A stretch of DNA of 64,000 nucleotides from an uncultured Chloroflexia bacterium (GTDB lineage Bacteria; Chloroflexota; Limnocylindria; Limnocylindrales; CSP1-4): assembly GCA_963766735.1 (NCBI GenBank), contig CAVYBU010000002.1:192001-256000 (forward strand), given 5' to 3'. The position numbers and the translations under genes are program-made. Positions 4,147 through 11,475 of the stretch are shown piece after piece. Below the pieces are notes generated by a model. The model did not search any database, was not told the origin of the DNA, and saw only the letters and a program-made list of their open reading frames with translations. Position 1 is the first letter of the stretch; each line of letters opens with the position of its first letter.

Positions 4147-5179
4147 GGCGCTGCTCCTCGGCCTCCTGGCCCGCGGACCGCCACCCGGCCGGGGCGGGAG
4201 CGTCCAGCGGGCGCCCATACACCTGCCATCGGTGCGCAACCCCGAACCCAAGCCTCTCGTACAGCTGCAACGCGCCCGTCGGGTTGGAGCCGTCCACGCC
4301 CAGCCACGCCTCGGCCATGCCCTGGTCCCGCAGGACCCGCAACGATGCCGAGCAGAGTGCCTTGGCCACGCCACGCCCGCGCCACGGGCGCCGCACCGAG
4401 ACCTGCTCCAGCCACCCGCGGCTGATCGCCAGCTCCTCGATCTCGGCGCGGACGATCGTGTTCATCACGATGCCCGCCACCTGGTCTCCGTCCCACGCGA
4501 TGCACCACAGGGACGTGTCCCGGTCCGGGCCGTGGAACCAGGTGTGGAGGTTCGTCTCGTCCGGCGCGCGATGGCCCCAGTGATCCGCGAACGCCTCGTT
4601 GTTGGCATCGAAGATCGCCCGGTGCTGATCCGGCGTGACCGGCCGCATCTCGAGGCCTACGGGGAGGGGAGCCTCCGGCAGGATCCCGGTGAGCGTCCGG
4701 CGCATCTCAAACCCGTATCGGATGGGGACGAAACCCTCAGCGGCCAGCAGCGCCCTCTTGCCCGTCTCCTGGTCCAGGGCCCAGGAGCGCATCTCCAGCG
4801 GACCGCGCCAGGGATCGGCCGCGCACTCGGCCGCGAGGCGCTCCCGGTTCGCGTGGAAGAGCATCGTCCCGATGCCCCGGCGCCGATGTTCGGGCACGAT
4901 CACGCCCCACGACTCCGCCACGAGCACGCCGTCGCGGACGAGGCGGTACCCGATGGAGAAGCCGGCGAAGGCCCCATCCAGCTCGGCGAGCAGGACATCC
5001 CGCTCCGTCCGGAACGTCGCGGAGTCGGCGTTGTCGGCGGCGAGGGTTGCCCCAGTCTGGACCTCCTCGATCCCGTCGGCGCGGTTGGCGCGGTTGAGCG
5101 CGTCAGCCATCGCGTCCCAGTCTTCGGCCGTGGCGTGCCGGAGCGTGAGCCCGGGGATCGTCGTGGCAGTCGTGCTCAT
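4118..5179 (-). CDS. Tandem-domain GNAT family N-acetyltransferase
   Basis: Two acetyl-CoA motifs (VPEHRRRGIG, VRRPWRGRGVA) and NPTGALQLYERLGF; ATGA overlap with upstream GNAT. Confidence 0.88.
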   Translation of the reverse strand: MSTTATTIPGLTLRHATAEDWDAMADALNRANRADGIEEVQTGATLAADNADSATFRTERDVLLAELDGAFAGFSIGYRLVRDGVLVAESWGVIVPEHRRRGIGTMLFHANRERLAAECAADPWRGPLEMRSWALDQETGKRALLAAEGFVPIRYGFEMRRTLTGILPEAPLPVGLEMRPVTPDQHRAIFDANNEAFADHWGHRAPDETNLHTWFHGPDRDTSLWCIAWDGDQVAGIVMNTIVRAEIEELAISRGWLEQVSVRRPWRGRGVAKALCSASLRVLRDQGMAEAWLGVDGSNPTGALQLYERLGFGVAHRWQVYGRPLDAPAPAGWRSAGQEAEEQRLRTGGDPRA

Positions 5180-6150
5180 CGGTGGTCCTCCCCAGGGTCG
5201 AACGGCTTGCGGTAGGTCGCGCTGCGCGTGACGACGCGGAAGCCGGATGCCTCGTACAGGGTGAGCGCCTGGTTGCGATTGTCCAGGTCCACGCCGAGCC
5301 AGGCGCTGGCGGCCCCGGCCTCCCGGAGGCGCCGGAGGCTCTCCGCCATCGCTGCCCGGCCAAGGCCGCGGCGGCGGTGGTCGGGGCGCGTGGCGAGGGA
5401 TTCGAGGTAGCCCCGGATGGTGCCGTCCGGGGCCGGCTCGAGGAAGTTGCTGAGGCACGCCACCGGCGCGTCGCCCTGCCACGCCACCACGACGAGATCG
5501 CGGCGGAAGCGGGGATCTCCCGCCCAGACGTCGAGCCGCTGATCGCCGGCGTCGTACTCCCCCCAGTGTTCGTTGAAGGCCGTGACCATCACGTCGAAGA
5601 TGGCCGGCAGCTCGTGCTCCTCCGGCGTGCGGATGGCGTAGCCGTCCGGGACGTCGACCGCCGGCAGGTCCAGGAGGTCCGGCCGGAGCATCTGCGCGTC
5701 CCAGCGCACGGCCTCATAGCCGCGACCTGCCAGCGCCAGGAGGAACTCGTCGTCGCCCTCGTCCGCATAGGCGGTGAACCAGGACCGGCGGTCCCGGGCG
5801 TGTGTCCCGGCGATCACCCGCAGGCGCGCCTCGCTCCAGGCGAGGAACGCCTCGGCGATACCCAGGCCCCAGGCGGCGGGCTCGACGATGGCGGTGGAGT
5901 CGTAGACCCGGTCACCGTCGGCCAGGTCGTGCCATTCGACCCGCGCGTAGCCGACGGTGATCCCGTCTCGTTCCGCGATCAGGCAGTCCTCGAGCGGATC
6001 GGAGTTCACGAGGTGGGCGTAGTGATGCTCCATCGCCGCGAGGTTGACCCCGTCGAGCAGCCCGAGCCGGGCCCGCAGCCGTGCACTCGCCGCGGCCATC
6101 CCGGCCAGCTCCTCCGTCCCGCGATACGGGCGGTAGGCGGTGCCGTTCAT
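5176..6150 (-). CDS. Tandem-domain GNAT family N-acetyltransferase
   Basis: VEPAAWGLGIA, TRPDHRRRGLG, N.ALTLYEASGF; ATGA overlap with rsgA. Confidence 0.88.
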   Translation of the reverse strand: MNGTAYRPYRGTEELAGMAAASARLRARLGLLDGVNLAAMEHHYAHLVNSDPLEDCLIAERDGITVGYARVEWHDLADGDRVYDSTAIVEPAAWGLGIAEAFLAWSEARLRVIAGTHARDRRSWFTAYADEGDDEFLLALAGRGYEAVRWDAQMLRPDLLDLPAVDVPDGYAIRTPEEHELPAIFDVMVTAFNEHWGEYDAGDQRLDVWAGDPRFRRDLVVVAWQGDAPVACLSNFLEPAPDGTIRGYLESLATRPDHRRRGLGRAAMAESLRRLREAGAASAWLGVDLDNRNQALTLYEASGFRVVTRSATYRKPFDPGEDHR

Positions 6151-7271
6151 CGGTCTCTCCCGTACTTCTCGGCCATGTACCGGCTGGCGGCCTGGCTGAT
6201 GGCCTTCCACTTCTTCCGCTCCGCCTCGCGGAGGAGCCGGTCCCCGGAGCGCGCGACGTGGGCCGCCTCCTTCTCGAGCTTGCGATAACTCTCGAGGCGG
6301 GCGTGGCTCAACCGGCCGTCGGCGAGGGCGGCACCGATCGCGCAGCCGGGCTCCCGCTCGTGGCGGCAGTCGGCAAACCGGCAGCCCGCGGCGATCTCCA
6401 TGATGTCGGCAAACGCCGGATCCAGTCCGTCGCCTGCGCCGCCGACGCCGAGGGAGCGGATCCCCGGCGTGTCGATGAGGAGCGCGCCGCCGGGCAGGCG
6501 GACGAGCTCGCGATGGGTGGTCGTGTGGCGGCCGCGGGAGTCATCCTCGCGAACCGCGCTGGTGCGCAGGTGCTCGCGCCCGAGGAGCGCGTTGACCAGC
6601 GTGGACTTGCCGACGCCCGACGAGCCCAGGACGACGGCCGTTCTCCCGGGAGCCAGGTGGCGTGTCGCGAGGTCGGCCACGCCGTCTCCGGTCCGCGCGG
6701 AGATCGCGACGACATCCGTCCCCGGGGCCACGCTGCCGGCCGCGGTCCGCAGGCCCTCGAGATCGGCGGCCACGTCCGCCTTGTTGAGGACGACGACGGG
6801 GATCGCGCCCCCGGAATACGCCACGGCGATGTACCGCTCCAGGCGGCGAAGGTTGAAGTCGCCGTCCAGGCCTGCGACGACGAGCGCCACGTCCACGTTG
6901 GCGGCCAGCACCTGCTCGTCGGTTGCGTGGCCCTCCTCGGTTCCGCGCCGGAACACCGTGCGCCGCGGCAGGACGGCATGGATCACGGCGGGCCCTCCAC
7001 CGTCGGTGCTACCGGCGGCAGCCACCCAGTCGCCCACGGCGGGCAGGTCGGCAGGGCCGAGGGCCTCGTGGCGGAGCCGGCCGGCGATGACCGAGTCCCG
7101 GTCCCCGCCGGGAGTGGCGAGGACCCAGGAGGCCCGATGTGAGGCCACGACCCGGGCGGGCTGCCACCCCGTTGCCGTGAACGGCGCGAAGGAGGCGGCC
7201 CAGCCCGGGTCCCAGCCGAGCTCGGTCGGAGTCGCGGGAGCCGCGCCTTCGGTCGGGTGGTCCATCGTCAT
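6147..7271 (-). CDS. rsgA: Ribosome small subunit-dependent GTPase A
   Basis: PAVGDWV, AANVD, NKAD (G4), GSSGVGKST (G1), GRHTTT, DTPG (G3), CRFADCRHEREPGC zinc site. Confidence 0.95.
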   Translation of the reverse strand: MTMDHPTEGAAPATPTELGWDPGWAASFAPFTATGWQPARVVASHRASWVLATPGGDRDSVIAGRLRHEALGPADLPAVGDWVAAAGSTDGGGPAVIHAVLPRRTVFRRGTEEGHATDEQVLAANVDVALVVAGLDGDFNLRRLERYIAVAYSGGAIPVVVLNKADVAADLEGLRTAAGSVAPGTDVVAISARTGDGVADLATRHLAPGRTAVVLGSSGVGKSTLVNALLGREHLRTSAVREDDSRGRHTTTHRELVRLPGGALLIDTPGIRSLGVGGAGDGLDPAFADIMEIAAGCRFADCRHEREPGCAIGAALADGRLSHARLESYRKLEKEAAHVARSGDRLLREAERKKWKAISQAASRYMAEKYGRDR

Positions 7272-8185
7272 CCCACCCGCTTGAGCTTGCCGGTGCGCTT
7301 CGCGTATCGCTCGGCGCGCGCGAACGCCCACAGGCCGGCCGGGATGAGCACGACGCCAAGGATGATCAGGGGGACGATGTCCCCGACGAGGGCCGTGAGC
7401 GGCGCCCCATCGAGGATCCCTGCCCGCACGCCGTCGAGCACGTAGGTTGCCGGCGACAGCCTCGAGATCGCCTGCATCCACTCCGGCAGGACCTCGACCG
7501 GGTAGTAGACCCCGGACACGAGGAGCAGGCACGACTGGATGACGAAGGTCATCTGCGCCCCGCGTTCCACGTAGAGCAGCGGCAGGATCGCGGCCATCAT
7601 GCCGATGCCCACGAAGCTGAACGACCCGAGGAGAACGAAGACCGCGGCGGTCGAGAGGTTCGTCACCCCCAGGTCCAGCCCCCGGTAGAACAGCATCATG
7701 ACCACGAGCATGGCAGCGGTATGCACCAGGCCGTAGCCCATCGCGTACACGCAGGATCCCAGGAGCTGGGTCCAGCGCCGAACCGGCGCCATGAACGTGT
7801 ACTCGAGCGTGCCCTCCCAGCGCTCCATCGCGATCGTCTCTGCGATCCACGAGAAGACGACGGACAGGTAGTTCCAGAAGACGGCGCCGATGATGAGCGT
7901 GAGCAGGAGCCGCTCGTTGCCCTCGGCAGCACCGATCAGGCTGATCGATAGGGCACCGGCGACGGAGTAGACGAGGAAGGCGAGCTCCCACCCCCAGTAC
8001 CGGCGGGTGAGGAAGAAGTTGCGTTCGACGAAGGCGTATGACGCCTTCAGCTCGTGCGCGACGAGAGCCAACGGAGGTTTCCTTTCGAGGTTCCGCTCCC
8101 GGGTCCGGTTGCCCGGACCCGGGATGCGTCTGCGGCGGGGGTCATCCCTGCCACTCGGGGGTGGCCAGGGTCTCGCCTCCGACAC
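7268..8185 (-). CDS. ABC-2 type exporter permease
   Basis: Multiple TM helices, ERWEGTLE, SGVYYPVEVLPEWMQ..S..SPATY motifs. Confidence 0.9.
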   Translation of the reverse strand: MSEARPWPPPSGRDDPRRRRIPGPGNRTRERNLERKPPLALVAHELKASYAFVERNFFLTRRYWGWELAFLVYSVAGALSISLIGAAEGNERLLLTLIIGAVFWNYLSVVFSWIAETIAMERWEGTLEYTFMAPVRRWTQLLGSCVYAMGYGLVHTAAMLVVMMLFYRGLDLGVTNLSTAAVFVLLGSFSFVGIGMMAAILPLLYVERGAQMTFVIQSCLLLVSGVYYPVEVLPEWMQAISRLSPATYVLDGVRAGILDGAPLTALVGDIVPLIILGVVLIPAGLWAFARAERYAKRTGKLKRVG

Positions 8186-8435
8186 GCCGGCCGAGTCGCA
8201 CCAGCGACTCGCCGAACTGGTGGCGGATCGACCGTTTGGACACGGTGTCCGCGCGGTCGGCGCCGTGGATCAACCACTCGGACACGATGGCCGCGCGGTC
8301 GGCATCGCGAATCGCCCGATGGAACGACTTGCGCTCCTCGAAGTTCGCGAGCTGGAGTGCGATGTGATGCACGTGAGGATCCTTTCGGAAGGTGGGGTGA
8401 CGCCTGGTGGTCGTTGCTGGCCGGTTGGTCATCAC
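8142..8435 (-). CDS. Small hypothetical protein within ABC/rsgA operon
   Basis: Strong AAAGGAGGTG RBS; C-terminal G.SLVRLGRRV amphipathic segment; sits between ATPase and permease. Confidence 0.6.
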   Translation of the reverse strand: MMTNRPATTTRRHPTFRKDPHVHHIALQLANFEERKSFHRAIRDADRAAIVSEWLIHGADRADTVSKRSIRHQFGESLVRLGRRVGGETLATPEWQG

Positions 8436-8454
8436 GGCACCTCCTTTCGATGGT

Positions 8455-9405
8455 TCAGTCGGGTGTGTCGCCGTCCTCCTCGACGTCCTCGTCGAGGGAG
8501 CGGCCGGTGAAGGTCATGAACACGGCGTGGAGCGTGGGCTCCTGCCCGTGAACGTCGGCGACCATGCGCTTGAGCCCTTCGGGCGAGTCCTCGGCAACCA
8601 CACGACCCCCATCGAGGATCGTGATCCGGTCGCAGAGGCGCTCAGCCTCGGCCAGGTCGTGCGTGGTGAGGACGATCGTGGCGTCGTGCGCCTTGTTCAT
8701 CTCTTCCACGAAGCCCTGGACGTCGAGCTTGCTGCGCGGGTCGAGGCCCGTCGTCGGCTCATCCAGGAGGAGCACCGTCGGGCTCGTCAGCAGGGCTCGC
8801 GCGATCGCGACCTTCTGCTGCATTCCCCGGCTCATCTGCTCCACCGGGCGTCCGAGGCGGCTCTCCGCGATGCCGAGCCGGGCGAGGATGGCCGTGGCCT
8901 GCCGCTTCGCCTGTCGGGCATCGAGGCCGTAGAGGCGGGCGGCGAAGAGCAGGTTCTCCATCGGGCTCAGCTTCTTGAAGAAGGCCGCGTCCACGCTCAC
9001 CCGGTTGATGAGCCGCTTCACGGCGAGCTCATCGCGCTCGATGTCGAGGCCGAACACCTCCACCTTGCCCTCGTCCAGGGTCAGCAACCCAGAGATCAGG
9101 CGGATGAGGGTCGACTTGCCGGAGCCGTTGGCGCCCAGGACCCCGTGGATCGTGCCGCGCTCCAGGCGGAGCGAGACGTCGTCGATCGCGAGGACCGGGG
9201 GCTTGCGCCGGTCGACGTTGAAACGCTTGGTGACGTGGTCGACGAGGAGAGCCGGCGGGCCAGCCGGGGTCCGGAGCAGGGGGGCGTGCCCTCCCGCGTC
9301 CGGGCCGGCCGGGATCCGCGCGGCGGGCTCGAGGTCGGCGTTGGCGGACATCGGGCTCGACGTCGGAGTGGTCGTCTTCGGTTCGGGCGCGAGGGTTGTG
9401 GTCAC
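8455..9405 (-). CDS. ABC exporter ATP-binding protein (DrrA/NodI-like)
   Basis: GANGSGKST Walker A, MSRGMQQK signature, LLLDEPTTGLD Walker B, TTH; GTG at 9405 after CAGGAGG. Confidence 0.93.
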   Translation of the reverse strand: MTTTLAPEPKTTTPTSSPMSANADLEPAARIPAGPDAGGHAPLLRTPAGPPALLVDHVTKRFNVDRRKPPVLAIDDVSLRLERGTIHGVLGANGSGKSTLIRLISGLLTLDEGKVEVFGLDIERDELAVKRLINRVSVDAAFFKKLSPMENLLFAARLYGLDARQAKRQATAILARLGIAESRLGRPVEQMSRGMQQKVAIARALLTSPTVLLLDEPTTGLDPRSKLDVQGFVEEMNKAHDATIVLTTHDLAEAERLCDRITILDGGRVVAEDSPEGLKRMVADVHGQEPTLHAVFMTFTGRSLDEDVEEDGDTPD

Positions 9406-9536
9406 GGGACCCTCCTGTGGTTGGTGGTGGCTCGGGTTGCGCACCAGGCCGCGGGTCCCAGGCATGGGACGAGCCGCGGGCCCGGTGTTCGGGGGCCTGC
9501 GGCTCGGGGTCGTGCGTGGCCGTGGAGATGCCTGCA

Positions 9537-9572
9537 CAAACAAAAGAGCCGGGGCCCGGTGGCCCACGGCTC
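9537..9572 (-). terminator. Intrinsic terminator (attenuator) in leader of ABC/rsgA operon
   Basis: Minus strand GAGCCG-U-GGGCC-ACCG-GGCCC-CGGCUC followed by UUUUGUUUG, ~130 nt upstream of the first gene. Confidence 0.85.
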
Positions 9573-9604
9573 GGTGGTCGCTCTGGGGCGCCTGGCCCCG
9601 CGTC

Positions 9605-9688
9605 CTACCTGCTGGTGGGCACACCTCTACCGCTGACGGTGCCGAGGGCAGCCGCCGTGCGCGGGTAGAAGACTGCGTTCTTCACCAT
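9605..9688 (-). CDS. Putative 27-aa leader peptide (uORF) MVKNAVFYPRTAAALGTVSGRGVPTSR
   Basis: ATG with upstream GGAGG, located between the promoter and the terminator; coding region can pair with the terminator 5' arm. Confidence 0.65.
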   Translation of the reverse strand: MVKNAVFYPRTAAALGTVSGRGVPTSR

Positions 9689-9744
9689 GGGGCTCACCGC
9701 CTCCGGTAACAGGACGTGCCGAGCGACCTGCTCAGCCGCCGCGG

Positions 9745-9774
9745 ATACTACGCTCCGCTCGGCGGGCTCGTCAA
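9745..9774 (-). promoter_or_regulatory. Sigma70-type promoter of attenuated operon
   Basis: TTGACG-N18-TAGTAT on minus strand. Confidence 0.6.
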
Positions 9775-9954
9775 CCCCAGCCGACGGTCGCGTGCCGCGG
9801 GCGGATCCTGGCGCGGGTTGGCCAGGCCCCGGGGCGGGTGCCGCCCCTGAGACGACACCCGGCAGCTGAGACGACATCCGGCGCCAGCGATCTTGGAACC
9901 GCGCGCCGCCGCCGCGCGTCGACACGGTGGCGCCCCTCAACGAGGATCCCGATC

Positions 9955-10856
9955 GTGCGTCTGCCGACTCGTCTCCATCGTCACCGTGTTCGCCATGCTG
10001 CTCGTCGCTGCCTGCGGCGGTGCCGGAAGTGCTTCGCCGTCCTCCCCTGCGTCGCCCACGTCGGCGCCCTCGGCGGACCCGACCGCCCAGACCTACTGGC
10101 TCCGGGCCATGCCCACCCAGGCCCTGCCACCCGTCAACGTGTTTGCGATGCAGCCGTCTGTCGTCATCACCGGCGACGGCCTTGTCGTCACCCAGGGTCC
10201 CGTTCCGGCGATCTTCCCGGGACCCCTCATGCCCAACCTGCAGGCGCGCCAGCTGTCCGAGGCCGGGCGCTCAGAGATCCTCGCCGCTGCAGCAGAGCTG
10301 GGCCTGCTCGAGGGCAAGACCGACTTCAGCTCGGGGGAGCCGATCATGGGCGGCATGAGCGGCCGGATCGAGCTCACGGTCGACGGCCAGGCTCGTCACG
10401 CTCACCGGCAACCCCGATGCCCTCATGGAGTGCGTGACCACGCCCTGCGAGCCGCCCGCGGGCTCGCCCGCGGCGTTCGCGGAGTTCTGGCGCCGTCTCG
10501 GCGACTTGCCGTCGTGGATCCCGGACGAGCTGGGCCCGGAGGCGCCGTACGAGGCCCAGGCCTATGCGATCCTCGTCGGCCCCGCCCCGATGCCCGACCC
10601 GAACCTCCCGCAGCCCCCGATGGAATGGCCGCTCGAGCAGCCATTGGGCCTCTTCGGTGGCCCGGTCGCGGACGGCTCCTACCGGTGTGGCACGGTGTCA
10701 GGCGACGACGCGGCCACGCTGCGGCCCGCGCTGGAGGCGGCGAACCAGCTGACCCAGTGGGTCGACGATCCGACGACGAGCGCCACCTTCGGCCTCACCG
10801 TGCGCCCGATGGTGCCTGGCGAGGATGTCTGCCGGGAGGTGTTCGGCCCCGCCTGA
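9955..10856 (+). CDS. Hypothetical lipoprotein, frameshifted (extra G near 10390; start region also out of frame)
   Basis: Lipobox LVAAC plus S/P linker in one frame; continues LVTLTGNPDALMECVTTPC in the +1 frame. Confidence 0.6.
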
Positions 10857-10908
10857 GTCGCAGGTGTCCGGCCGGTGGGGTGTCTTGCCGCTCCGCCGGC
10901 CGGTCGAC

Positions 10909-11475
10909 TCAGGGACGACGCCTGACCACGACCCGCGGTCGTCCCGCGGCCCTGGACGTGGTGGGGGAGACGACCGCGAACCCGGCTCGCTCGAACATCG
11001 CAGTCGTGCCGGTGTAGGCAGCCGCGGAAGCCATCCGATCCCCGCCGGTTTCCACCGGGTAGCCCTCGAGGGTCGTCGCCCCGTTGGCCCTGGCGTATGC
11101 GACCGCCGCGTCAAGCAGCGCGCCGGCCACTCCGCTCCGCCGCGACGTCCTCGCGACCACGAAGCAGTTCACGACCCACACCCCATCCCCGGGGAGCTGC
11201 GGGATCGTGCGCGATCTCGCCAGTCGTCCGAAGTCCTCGCGCGGCCCGAGTCCAACCCAGCCGACAGCCTTCCCGTCCCGCAGCGCCACCAGGCCGGGCG
11301 CCGGATCCCGCCCCACGAGTGCGCGCAGGTCCCGACGGGATTCGTCCACCGAGGTGTACCAGTTGGACCCGGGCTTGCGCCAGAACTGGCACCAGCACGA
11401 CTTCGGGTCGCCACCGGCGGCGAACAGCTCGACGATCGCCGGCCAGACGGCAGGGGACGCGGGCACGATCTCCAC
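10909..11475 (-). CDS. GNAT family N-acetyltransferase (CWC-type)
   Basis: CWC.FWR, WVVNCFVV..TSRRSGVA, EGYPV, YTG..AMF.RAGF motifs. Confidence 0.88.
   Translation of the reverse strand: MEIVPASPAVWPAIVELFAAGGDPKSCWCQFWRKPGSNWYTSVDESRRDLRALVGRDPAPGLVALRDGKAVGWVGLGPREDFGRLARSRTIPQLPGDGVWVVNCFVVARTSRRSGVAGALLDAAVAYARANGATTLEGYPVETGGDRMASAAAYTGTTAMFERAGFAVVSPTTSRAAGRPRVVVRRRP

Follow-up and report, generated by a model that had tools for sequence, protein, structure and literature searches.

We analysed a 64,000-nt stretch of DNA from an uncultured Chloroflexia bacterium (GenBank assembly GCA_963766735.1, contig CAVYBU010000002.1, positions 192,001 to 256,000; hereafter the window) and describe on its minus strand a leader of ~340 nt that precedes genes for an ABC-2 type exporter and for the 30S-subunit biogenesis GTPase RsgA. 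This leader is likely a ribosome-mediated (leader-peptide) transcription attenuator of the trp and bmrB style, acting on the exporter operon and, probably, on rsgA. It combines a short upstream open reading frame (uORF), an intrinsic terminator (T1) and a predicted antiterminator, one strand of which uses bases of the T1 5′ arm while the other lies where a translating ribosome could cover it. An earlier, sequence-only reading of this DNA had proposed a leader peptide with three mutually exclusive pairings. The leader ORF, the hairpin within it, the terminator and the idea of exclusivity read by a ribosome are all retained here, but the antiterminator partner that it put forward pairs at chance level and is replaced by a conserved, covarying one.

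A conserved leader ORF ahead of an intrinsic terminator

The uORF (9605–9688; all features are on the minus strand unless stated otherwise) starts at an ATG at 9688, runs for 27 codons to a TAG stop (9607–9605), as the sequence-only reading had placed it, and encodes MVKNAVFYPRTAAALGTVSGRGVPTSR. A Shine–Dalgarno sequence, GGAGG, is located 11 nt 5′ of the ATG (9700–9704). It lies partly within a small hairpin whose register covaries (GGCG/CGCC or GGAG/CUCC), with 86.9% of cells paired in an alignment of 60 distinct genus-level leaders (alignment A1). Under a scripted rule that accepts start codons 4–15 nt from a Shine–Dalgarno-like site, 86 of 89 distinct leaders have a start that shares the reading frame of the conserved stop; the resulting uORFs span 23–29 codons, and 77 of them are 27 or 28 codons long. 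Two of the three misses (L027 and L069) are, by eye, artefacts of the start rule, and the third (L049) carries a one-base frameshift. The spacer between the stop codon and the terminator occurs in all three modulo-3 length classes (53, 27 and 9 leaders). Since the uORF frame is kept while the spacer varies in this way, both the frame and the length of the uORF must be under selection, which argues for its translation.

The N-terminal two thirds of the encoded peptide are variable, and the C-terminus keeps the motif G-R-[GSF]-[VA]-P-x-[ST]-[SR] across genera. The third positions of the underlying codons, GGG AGA GGU GUG CCC ACC, are invariant in the 60 leaders, despite AGA being the rarest Arg codon in the window (1.7 per 1000) and GGU a minor codon. 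In one leader from another genus (L135), Pro is replaced by Leu through a C-to-U change that retains a G–U pair. Because synonymous sites are invariant even where a rare codon is used, and because the L135 change preserves pairing, the constraint on the uORF 3′ end appears to act on the RNA, as expected of an attenuator. These observations also bear on a different explanation, in which the uORF is a free-standing gene for a functional peptide of 27–28 residues, handled for example by the adjacent ABC exporter, and read-through is incidental. Such a gene would account for the C-terminal motif kept across genera, and the uORF does possess its own Shine–Dalgarno sequence, promoter and terminator beside an exporter. 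However, its conserved codons lack synonymous variation and include rare ones, its residue changes (Gly/Ser/Phe, Val/Ala, Pro to Leu) track pairing with the terminator, and two thirds of the peptide vary freely. Furthermore, the exporter genes have no promoter-like site of their own downstream of T1 (see below), and no modification genes are seen among the ORFs scanned. We see scarcely any chance that a peptide gene is the correct explanation.

As the sequence-only reading had remarked for the window, none of the listed leader peptides contains a run of a single amino acid, with at most RR or RRR in a few. This lack fits the sensing of stalled ribosomes better than the sensing of an amino acid. 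The leader also differs from the amino-acid-sensing type (trp, his, leu) in its downstream genes, which encode an ABC exporter, RsgA and a GNAT acetyltransferase.

T1 (9537–9572) is an 11-pair, G+C-rich hairpin of −22.2 kcal/mol followed by UUUUGUUUG, features by which it would terminate transcription. A stable T1 hairpin is found in 88 of 89 leaders (mean −22 to −24 kcal/mol), and in 78 of those 88 at least four U residues occur in the 8 nt past the stem; outside the window's genus the tail is mostly UUUUGA. A consensus scan of 9000–10200 returns T1 as the one terminator-like site (0.2 in shuffles) together with one promoter-like site (mean 0.0 in shuffles). The latter is sigma-70-like (9774–9745; TTGACG, an 18-nt spacer, TAGTAT), and its −35 box and GTAGnnT −10 box are kept across an alignment of 30 loci of the genus. 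The same scan finds no second promoter-like site between T1 and the start of the ABC genes, which would therefore depend on read-through of T1. Most of the matching pieces in assembled metatranscriptome contigs from Logan (shares 0.09–0.15) are Walker-A look-alikes from other ABC genes. Two contigs span T1, namely X1 record 8 (9405–9589) and X3 record 24 (9290–9778). The second also spans the promoter and may reflect DNA carry-over or a longer transcript, and the pair gives at most a weak hint that read-through RNA exists.

The antiterminator and the proposed switch

When 14-nt upstream windows are slid against the T1 5′ arm and loop (segment 3, 9558–9572), the strongest complement lies at the uORF 3′ end (alignment columns 135–138, codons ~22–25), with a mean of −17.7 kcal/mol and values of −10 kcal/mol or lower in 100% of the 60 leaders. 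In the window, alignments and duplex energies place this region within segment 2 (9615–9633), which comprises the 3′ arm of hairpin 1 (9633–9624) and the 5′ strand of the antiterminator, GGUGUGCCCAC (9625–9615), and which holds the rare AGA and minor GGU codons. Its GGUG-U-GCCCAC faces GUGGGC-CACC of segment 3 (GUGGGCCACC, 9567–9558), giving 10 pairs and one bulge. Complementarity between segments 2 and 3 is present in 97.7% of cells in the 60 leaders, and the duplexes are 7–9 kcal/mol more stable than those formed with shuffled targets (−18.5 versus −11.8 and −18.8 versus −10.0 kcal/mol).

Both antiterminator strands are invariant within the genus and show no covariation there. Between genera they covary, with GGUG/CACC in the window's genus versus GAUCUG/CAGAUC in most others, where GAUCUG-U-GCCCAU faces GUGGGC-CAGAUC. 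In addition, CAGUG faces CACUG in L100, GUGCCCAC faces GUGGGCAC plus GAUC in L102, L107 and L114, and the helix is kept through G–U pairs in L116, L135 and L136. Across 32 distinct combinations, duplexes of cognate strands have a mean of −17.8 kcal/mol and those of permuted partners a mean of −15.4 ± 0.45 kcal/mol. None of 5000 permutations reaches the cognate mean. This test overstates independence, as the sequences are related and represent about four covarying states, which weakens it as evidence for an attenuator, but its direction is clear. Comparison across related genomes, a check that the sequence-only reading had named, has thus found a conserved leader ORF and an antiterminator that covaries between genera, formed by the end of that ORF.

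The antiterminator of the sequence-only reading lies elsewhere. There, hairpin 1, in which UCUACCCGC (9669–9661) pairs with GCGGUAGA (9633–9626), was to hide CACGG (9659–9655) and CUCGG (9646–9642), and a ribosome stalled in the first codons (MVKNA) was to free both to pair with CCGAGCCGUG (9574–9565). All of these strings are complementary and occur where it placed them. Hairpin 1 with its enclosed inner pairs is part of the minimum-free-energy fold and is paired in 83–86% of cells in the 60 leaders (36–47% in slid controls), and the middle of the uORF is the second complementarity peak within the genus (−16.4 kcal/mol, columns 108–111). Nevertheless, CACGG and CUCGG sit in the variable part of the uORF, whereas the conserved, covarying partner of T1 is the uORF 3′ end. 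The best duplexes of this part with the T1 arm are just 1–2 kcal/mol better than with shuffled targets (−17.7 versus −15.9 and −16.3 versus −15.5 kcal/mol), and mid-uORF is the best of three upstream regions in 25 of 60 genus-level but only 3 of 25 other-genus leaders. We rejected a third candidate, the leader 5′ end: although several minimum-free-energy folds of truncated transcripts join it to the T1 5′ arm, its mean energy is −14.5 to −15.4 kcal/mol, and it outscores the other two regions in 0 of 60 genus-level and 4 of 25 other-genus leaders. Equilibrium folding of the full transcripts of 14 leaders under 28-nt ribosome masks lowers the terminator probability at codon 2 in two of them (0.41 in the window's leader, 0.16 in L020), as early stalling would require, but not in the other 12, and the inner hairpin that contains CUCGG is not opened by a ribosome on codons 1–5. 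Taken in its exact form, the sequence-only model is highly improbable.

The minimum-free-energy fold of 9745–9530 contains hairpin 1, the inner hairpin and the terminator hairpin, and the fold energy of this 216-nt stretch is unexceptional (z = −0.83; 34 of 200 shuffles fold equally well). In a sequence of 70% G+C, pairing by itself is weak proof, so the case rests on conservation. The local structure evaluated on the 60 leaders comprises a 5′ hairpin (P1), the Shine–Dalgarno hairpin, hairpin 1, a stop-codon hairpin, Hs, T1, H2 and H3. Of all cells, 92.8% are compatible with this structure, as against 36–47% in slid controls, and 13 of its pairs change on both sides, as against 5.1 in shuffles. 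A family-wide alignment, which was fitted to the model and hence leans towards it, has 31 such pairs versus 16.1 in shuffles.

The individual hairpins are kept to different degrees. P1 (9713–9740) has a stem and loop that are almost invariant within the genus; it appears in the minimum-free-energy fold and is paired in 92.5% of cells in the 60 leaders, and 6 of 6 pairs change on both sides in the family-wide, model-fitted alignment. In most genera other than the window's, the P1 loop reads CAGAUCG, identical over its seven bases to the loop of the terminator, and segment 2 could there pair with P1 as well; in the window's genus this does not hold. Segment 1, the 5′ arm of hairpin 1 (9661–9671), covers uORF codons ~6–10, and in the family-wide alignment 3 of 5 plus 3 of 5 pairs of hairpin 1 show double changes. 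The inner hairpin in mid-uORF (9636–9658; ACGG/CCGU and UGCC/GGCA) has counterparts such as GCGCC/GGCGC and GCACC/GGUGC in other genera, as seen by eye and not counted separately. Hs (9583–9601), between the stop codon and the terminator, has a variable loop; its stem is paired in 91.7% of cells in the 60 leaders and in 96% in the family alignment, where 5 of 5 pairs change on both sides. Past T1, H2 (9506–9470) and H3 (9470–9455), which together span 9455–9506, are kept across two families. Their pairing reaches 94% and 98% of cells in the 60 leaders, and family-wide 4 of 4 pairs of H3 covary. The arms of H2, which has no U tract, are nearly identical to those of T1.

In the mechanism that we propose, transcription would start ~7 nt past the −10 box, and the 27-codon uORF would be translated while RNA polymerase proceeds to T1. 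A ribosome located on the last ~7 codons or on the stop codon as segment 3 emerges would cover segment 2; T1 would then fold and the transcript would end at 9545–9537. A ribosome that lags or stalls farther upstream in the uORF would instead leave segment 2 free to pair with segment 3, which would block T1 and allow transcription to enter the ABC genes. With no ribosome present, hairpin 1, formed by segment 1 and the 5′ half of segment 2, could hold segment 2 in part of the leaders. The relative timing of ribosome and polymerase in this scheme is one that we infer. Its signal would probably be a general slowdown of translation, caused for example by ribosome-targeting compounds or poor ribosome function, and not the supply of one amino acid.

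A second folding set, of transcripts cut before the T1 3′ arm, bears on this scheme in 15 leaders. In 12 of them the antiterminator reaches a probability of 0.6–0.85 in at least one state without a ribosome on codon 21 or beyond, and once the P site is at codon 21 or farther on, the mask itself brings this probability to 0. A ribosome on the early codons is required for the antiterminator in L007 and L019 and, less strongly, in L014 and L109. What proves robust in these models is that a ribosome at the end of the uORF would block the antiterminator, and the contribution of hairpin 1 would be variable.

Several results weigh against an attenuator of this kind. In the equilibrium folds T1 has a probability of at least 0.95 at almost every ribosome position in the 14 leaders, the exceptions being the two at codon 2 given above and L014 at codon 6 (0.67). 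Constrained folding, a further check named by the sequence-only reading, does not separate the states at equilibrium, and since T1 forms there regardless of the ribosome, any switch must be kinetic and not thermodynamic. In the truncated transcripts, the antiterminator is weak in every state in 3 of 15 leaders (L022, L095 and L105) and needs no ribosome to form in about half of the set, so an anti-antiterminator role of hairpin 1 is not general. This hairpin is paired in only 69–79% of cells across genera, shares only 2 nt with the antiterminator strand in the window's genus, and prevents the antiterminator in silico in only some leaders. In 18 of the 60 genus-level leaders, moreover, no U tract directly follows the T1 stem; AAG or AAC comes first and then a U-rich run (12 AAGUGU, 4 AAGUGA and 2 AACUGU). 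Finally, the attenuator does not account for the invariant P1 loop, for GAGCGACCA just before T1, or for H2 and H3.

These unexplained invariant blocks could instead point to another type of cis-regulatory RNA, such as a riboswitch or an RNA on which an RNA-binding protein or Rho acts, in which P1, H2, H3 and the invariant stretches sense the signal and the ORF has a minor role or none. The slight effect of ribosome position on T1 at equilibrium would suit such an element, as would the ability of the H2 arms to swap partners with those of T1 (5′ arm with 3′ arm, both ways; 99.4% of cells paired). We rejected the swap as a mechanism, however, as it shows almost no covariation and its complementarity follows from the near-identity of the arms. 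A long-range pairing of E1 (9728–9721) with E2 (9583–9576) is paired in 94% of the genus-level set, though broken by L003, and is lost in other genera, where the two are non-complementary (GAUCGC faces GCGAAC); it was likewise rejected as a general feature. A search of 9000–10200 against the 4227 families of Rfam 15 at E up to 10 returned nothing relevant; the best match scores 20.3 bits against a threshold of 61, and none that overlaps the leader reaches its threshold. The Shine–Dalgarno sequence, start, frame, length and stop of the uORF are kept in 86 of 89 leaders from two families, and an untranslated RNA would need none of these. We therefore regard an element of this type as improbable and retain the ribosome-read attenuator.

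Distribution of the leader and the genes behind it

The whole leader is kept in Chloroflexota genomes of the Limnocylindria type, in two families of the class. Of 36 further genomes in the window's genus, 33 contain a DNA match to the 375-nt leader sequence (76–98% identity). It has no real match in 24 small sister-family genomes, where a single 50-nt match is at chance level. A 24-letter motif from the uORF end occurs at 59 places among 185,579 species genomes, 58 of them in records labelled Chloroflexota, Chloroflexia or Limnocylindrales (one Anaerolineaceae). The remaining place, in a Gammaproteobacteria record (L087), was discarded as a chance match in A+T-richer, coding-like sequence without any leader feature. 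These labels place the window's host among the Limnocylindria-type Chloroflexota, although its G+C content at first suggests an actinobacterium. Within the window's family, a covariance model (R1) built from alignment A1 detects the leader in 44 of 81 genomes and in 29 of 49 genera. In a class-wide draw, the genomes with a match to R1 number 23 of 29 in this family and 20 of 33 in a second one (18 of 31 without the unpublished genomes G203 and G211), and three further families yield none (0 of 4, 0 of 33 and 0 of 1). The window's own genome has one copy. Some genomes carry two, located 4–7 kb apart on one contig or on two contigs (G028:C22, G035:C15 and G018; also L031/L032 and L039/L066), which suggests duplicated leader-plus-transporter modules. 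An element kept across two families of this abundant, uncultured soil class could join RNA-family libraries for use in annotation.

The first gene behind the leader encodes a DrrA-like ABC transporter ATP-binding protein (8455–9405, GTG start at 9405; Pfam ABC_tran, E = 1e-31), which scores 228 bits against the drrA model TIGR01188, under its 312-bit cut-off. It is followed by an ABC-2 type permease (7268–8185, start uncertain; Pfam ABC2_membrane, E = 6.6e-17). In a comparison with solved structures, the ATPase had only generic ABC matches and the permease had none. An ortholog of the ATPase, 69–88% identical between genera, stands directly 3′ of the leader in 27 of 30 loci, and contig ends account for two of the three that lack it. 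In 9 of 10 longer loci from other genera both ATPase and permease lie 3′ of the leader, and in 8 of those 9 RsgA is encoded on the same strand within 6.7 kb. In the window, the start of rsgA (6147–7298; TIGR00157, 141 bits, cut-off 100 bits) adjoins the permease stop, an adjacency from which rsgA is probably co-transcribed with the ABC genes under the leader. It is the sole copy found in the window's own genome, which is 94% complete.

Between the ATPase stop and the first position at which the permease could start lie about 270 nt (8186–8454), and a gap of 300–400 nt occurs in other genera too. A 97-codon ORF in the window's gap (8142–8435) matches no Pfam or NCBIfam family, and a tblastn search of ten other genera gave no match to it. 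Family scans identify a two-domain GNAT acetyltransferase 3′ of rsgA on the same strand (5176–6210), with a weak likeness to the mycothiol synthase MshD (40 bits, far under the cut-off). Upstream of the leader and divergent from it lies a 374-codon ORF (9893–11017, plus strand) with a lipoprotein-like signal, a hydrophobic stretch followed by AACGG, and without a Pfam or NCBIfam match.

One genome (G103) presents a different arrangement. Behind its leader (L127, G103:C5:108500-115564, minus strand; uORF 6927–7004) come a 78-codon ORF, rsgA and a GNAT gene, and ABC genes are absent; the rsgA frame in this locus looks split in two (5892–6398 and 5285–5737). A leader directly ahead of the rsgA and GNAT region without ABC genes fits rsgA as a true target of the leader. 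A ribosome-read switch tied to the only rsgA of a genome raises the idea of a feedback between translation performance and 30S assembly, in which the leader would sense translational capacity and act back on ribosome assembly. Were this the case, slow, scarce or poisoned ribosomes would lag on the uORF, the antiterminator would form, and more of the only RsgA and of the exporter would be made. We offer this as a speculative and rather unlikely extension.

Relation to known attenuators

Attenuators of the leader-peptide type are familiar from Proteobacteria, Firmicutes and Actinobacteria. A search of a paper library found none described for Limnocylindria or Chloroflexi. By its sequence features, the architecture proposed here is a known one, that of the ribosome-mediated attenuator.

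In the trp-type attenuators of Proteobacteria, a 1:2 anti-antiterminator, a 2:3 antiterminator and a 3:4 terminator alternate, and a ribosome at the end of the leader ORF covers segment 2. The leader described here would follow the same four-segment logic, and in both cases a ribosome that reaches the end of the leader ORF would favour termination. It differs from the trp type in that it has no tandem regulatory codons and its downstream genes are not biosynthetic. Segment 2, which follows the stop codon in the trp type, lies here inside the ORF just before the stop, and the 2-nt overlap between the 1:2 hairpin and the antiterminator strand in the window's genus sets it apart further.

The leaders of ABC-F resistance genes such as msrD and vmlR (bioRxiv 10.1101/2021.11.29.470318 and 10.1101/2022.12.05.519065) also combine a uORF with terminator and antiterminator alternatives, which are reported to sense stalled ribosomes there. 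Many leaders of that group code for arrest peptides specific to a drug, and the genes under their control are those of soluble ABC-F translation factors. In the present case, by contrast, the regulated ATPase has a membrane partner, and the conservation of the peptide is explained by RNA pairing.

The nearest described case appears, by analogy of architecture, to be bmrB-bmrCD of Bacillus subtilis. According to Reilman et al. 2014 (PMC4191407), read-through into the ABC exporter genes there requires translation of a leader ORF that has three alternative stem–loops; ribosome-targeting antibiotics, which slow this translation, raise the read-through, and rare leader codons tune its basal level. 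Both systems place a short leader ORF, alternative stem–loops and an intrinsic terminator ahead of an ABC exporter operon. The rare-codon tuning of bmrB has a possible parallel in the rare AGA and the minor GGU or rare UCU codons of segment 2. The bmrB ORF has 53 codons and its terminator lies inside the coding region, whereas the uORF here has 27–28 codons and stops ~35 nt short of the terminator. BmrCD is a type IV heterodimeric exporter, whereas the genes controlled here would encode an ABC-2, DrrAB-like system followed by rsgA, and the two systems belong to hosts of different phyla.

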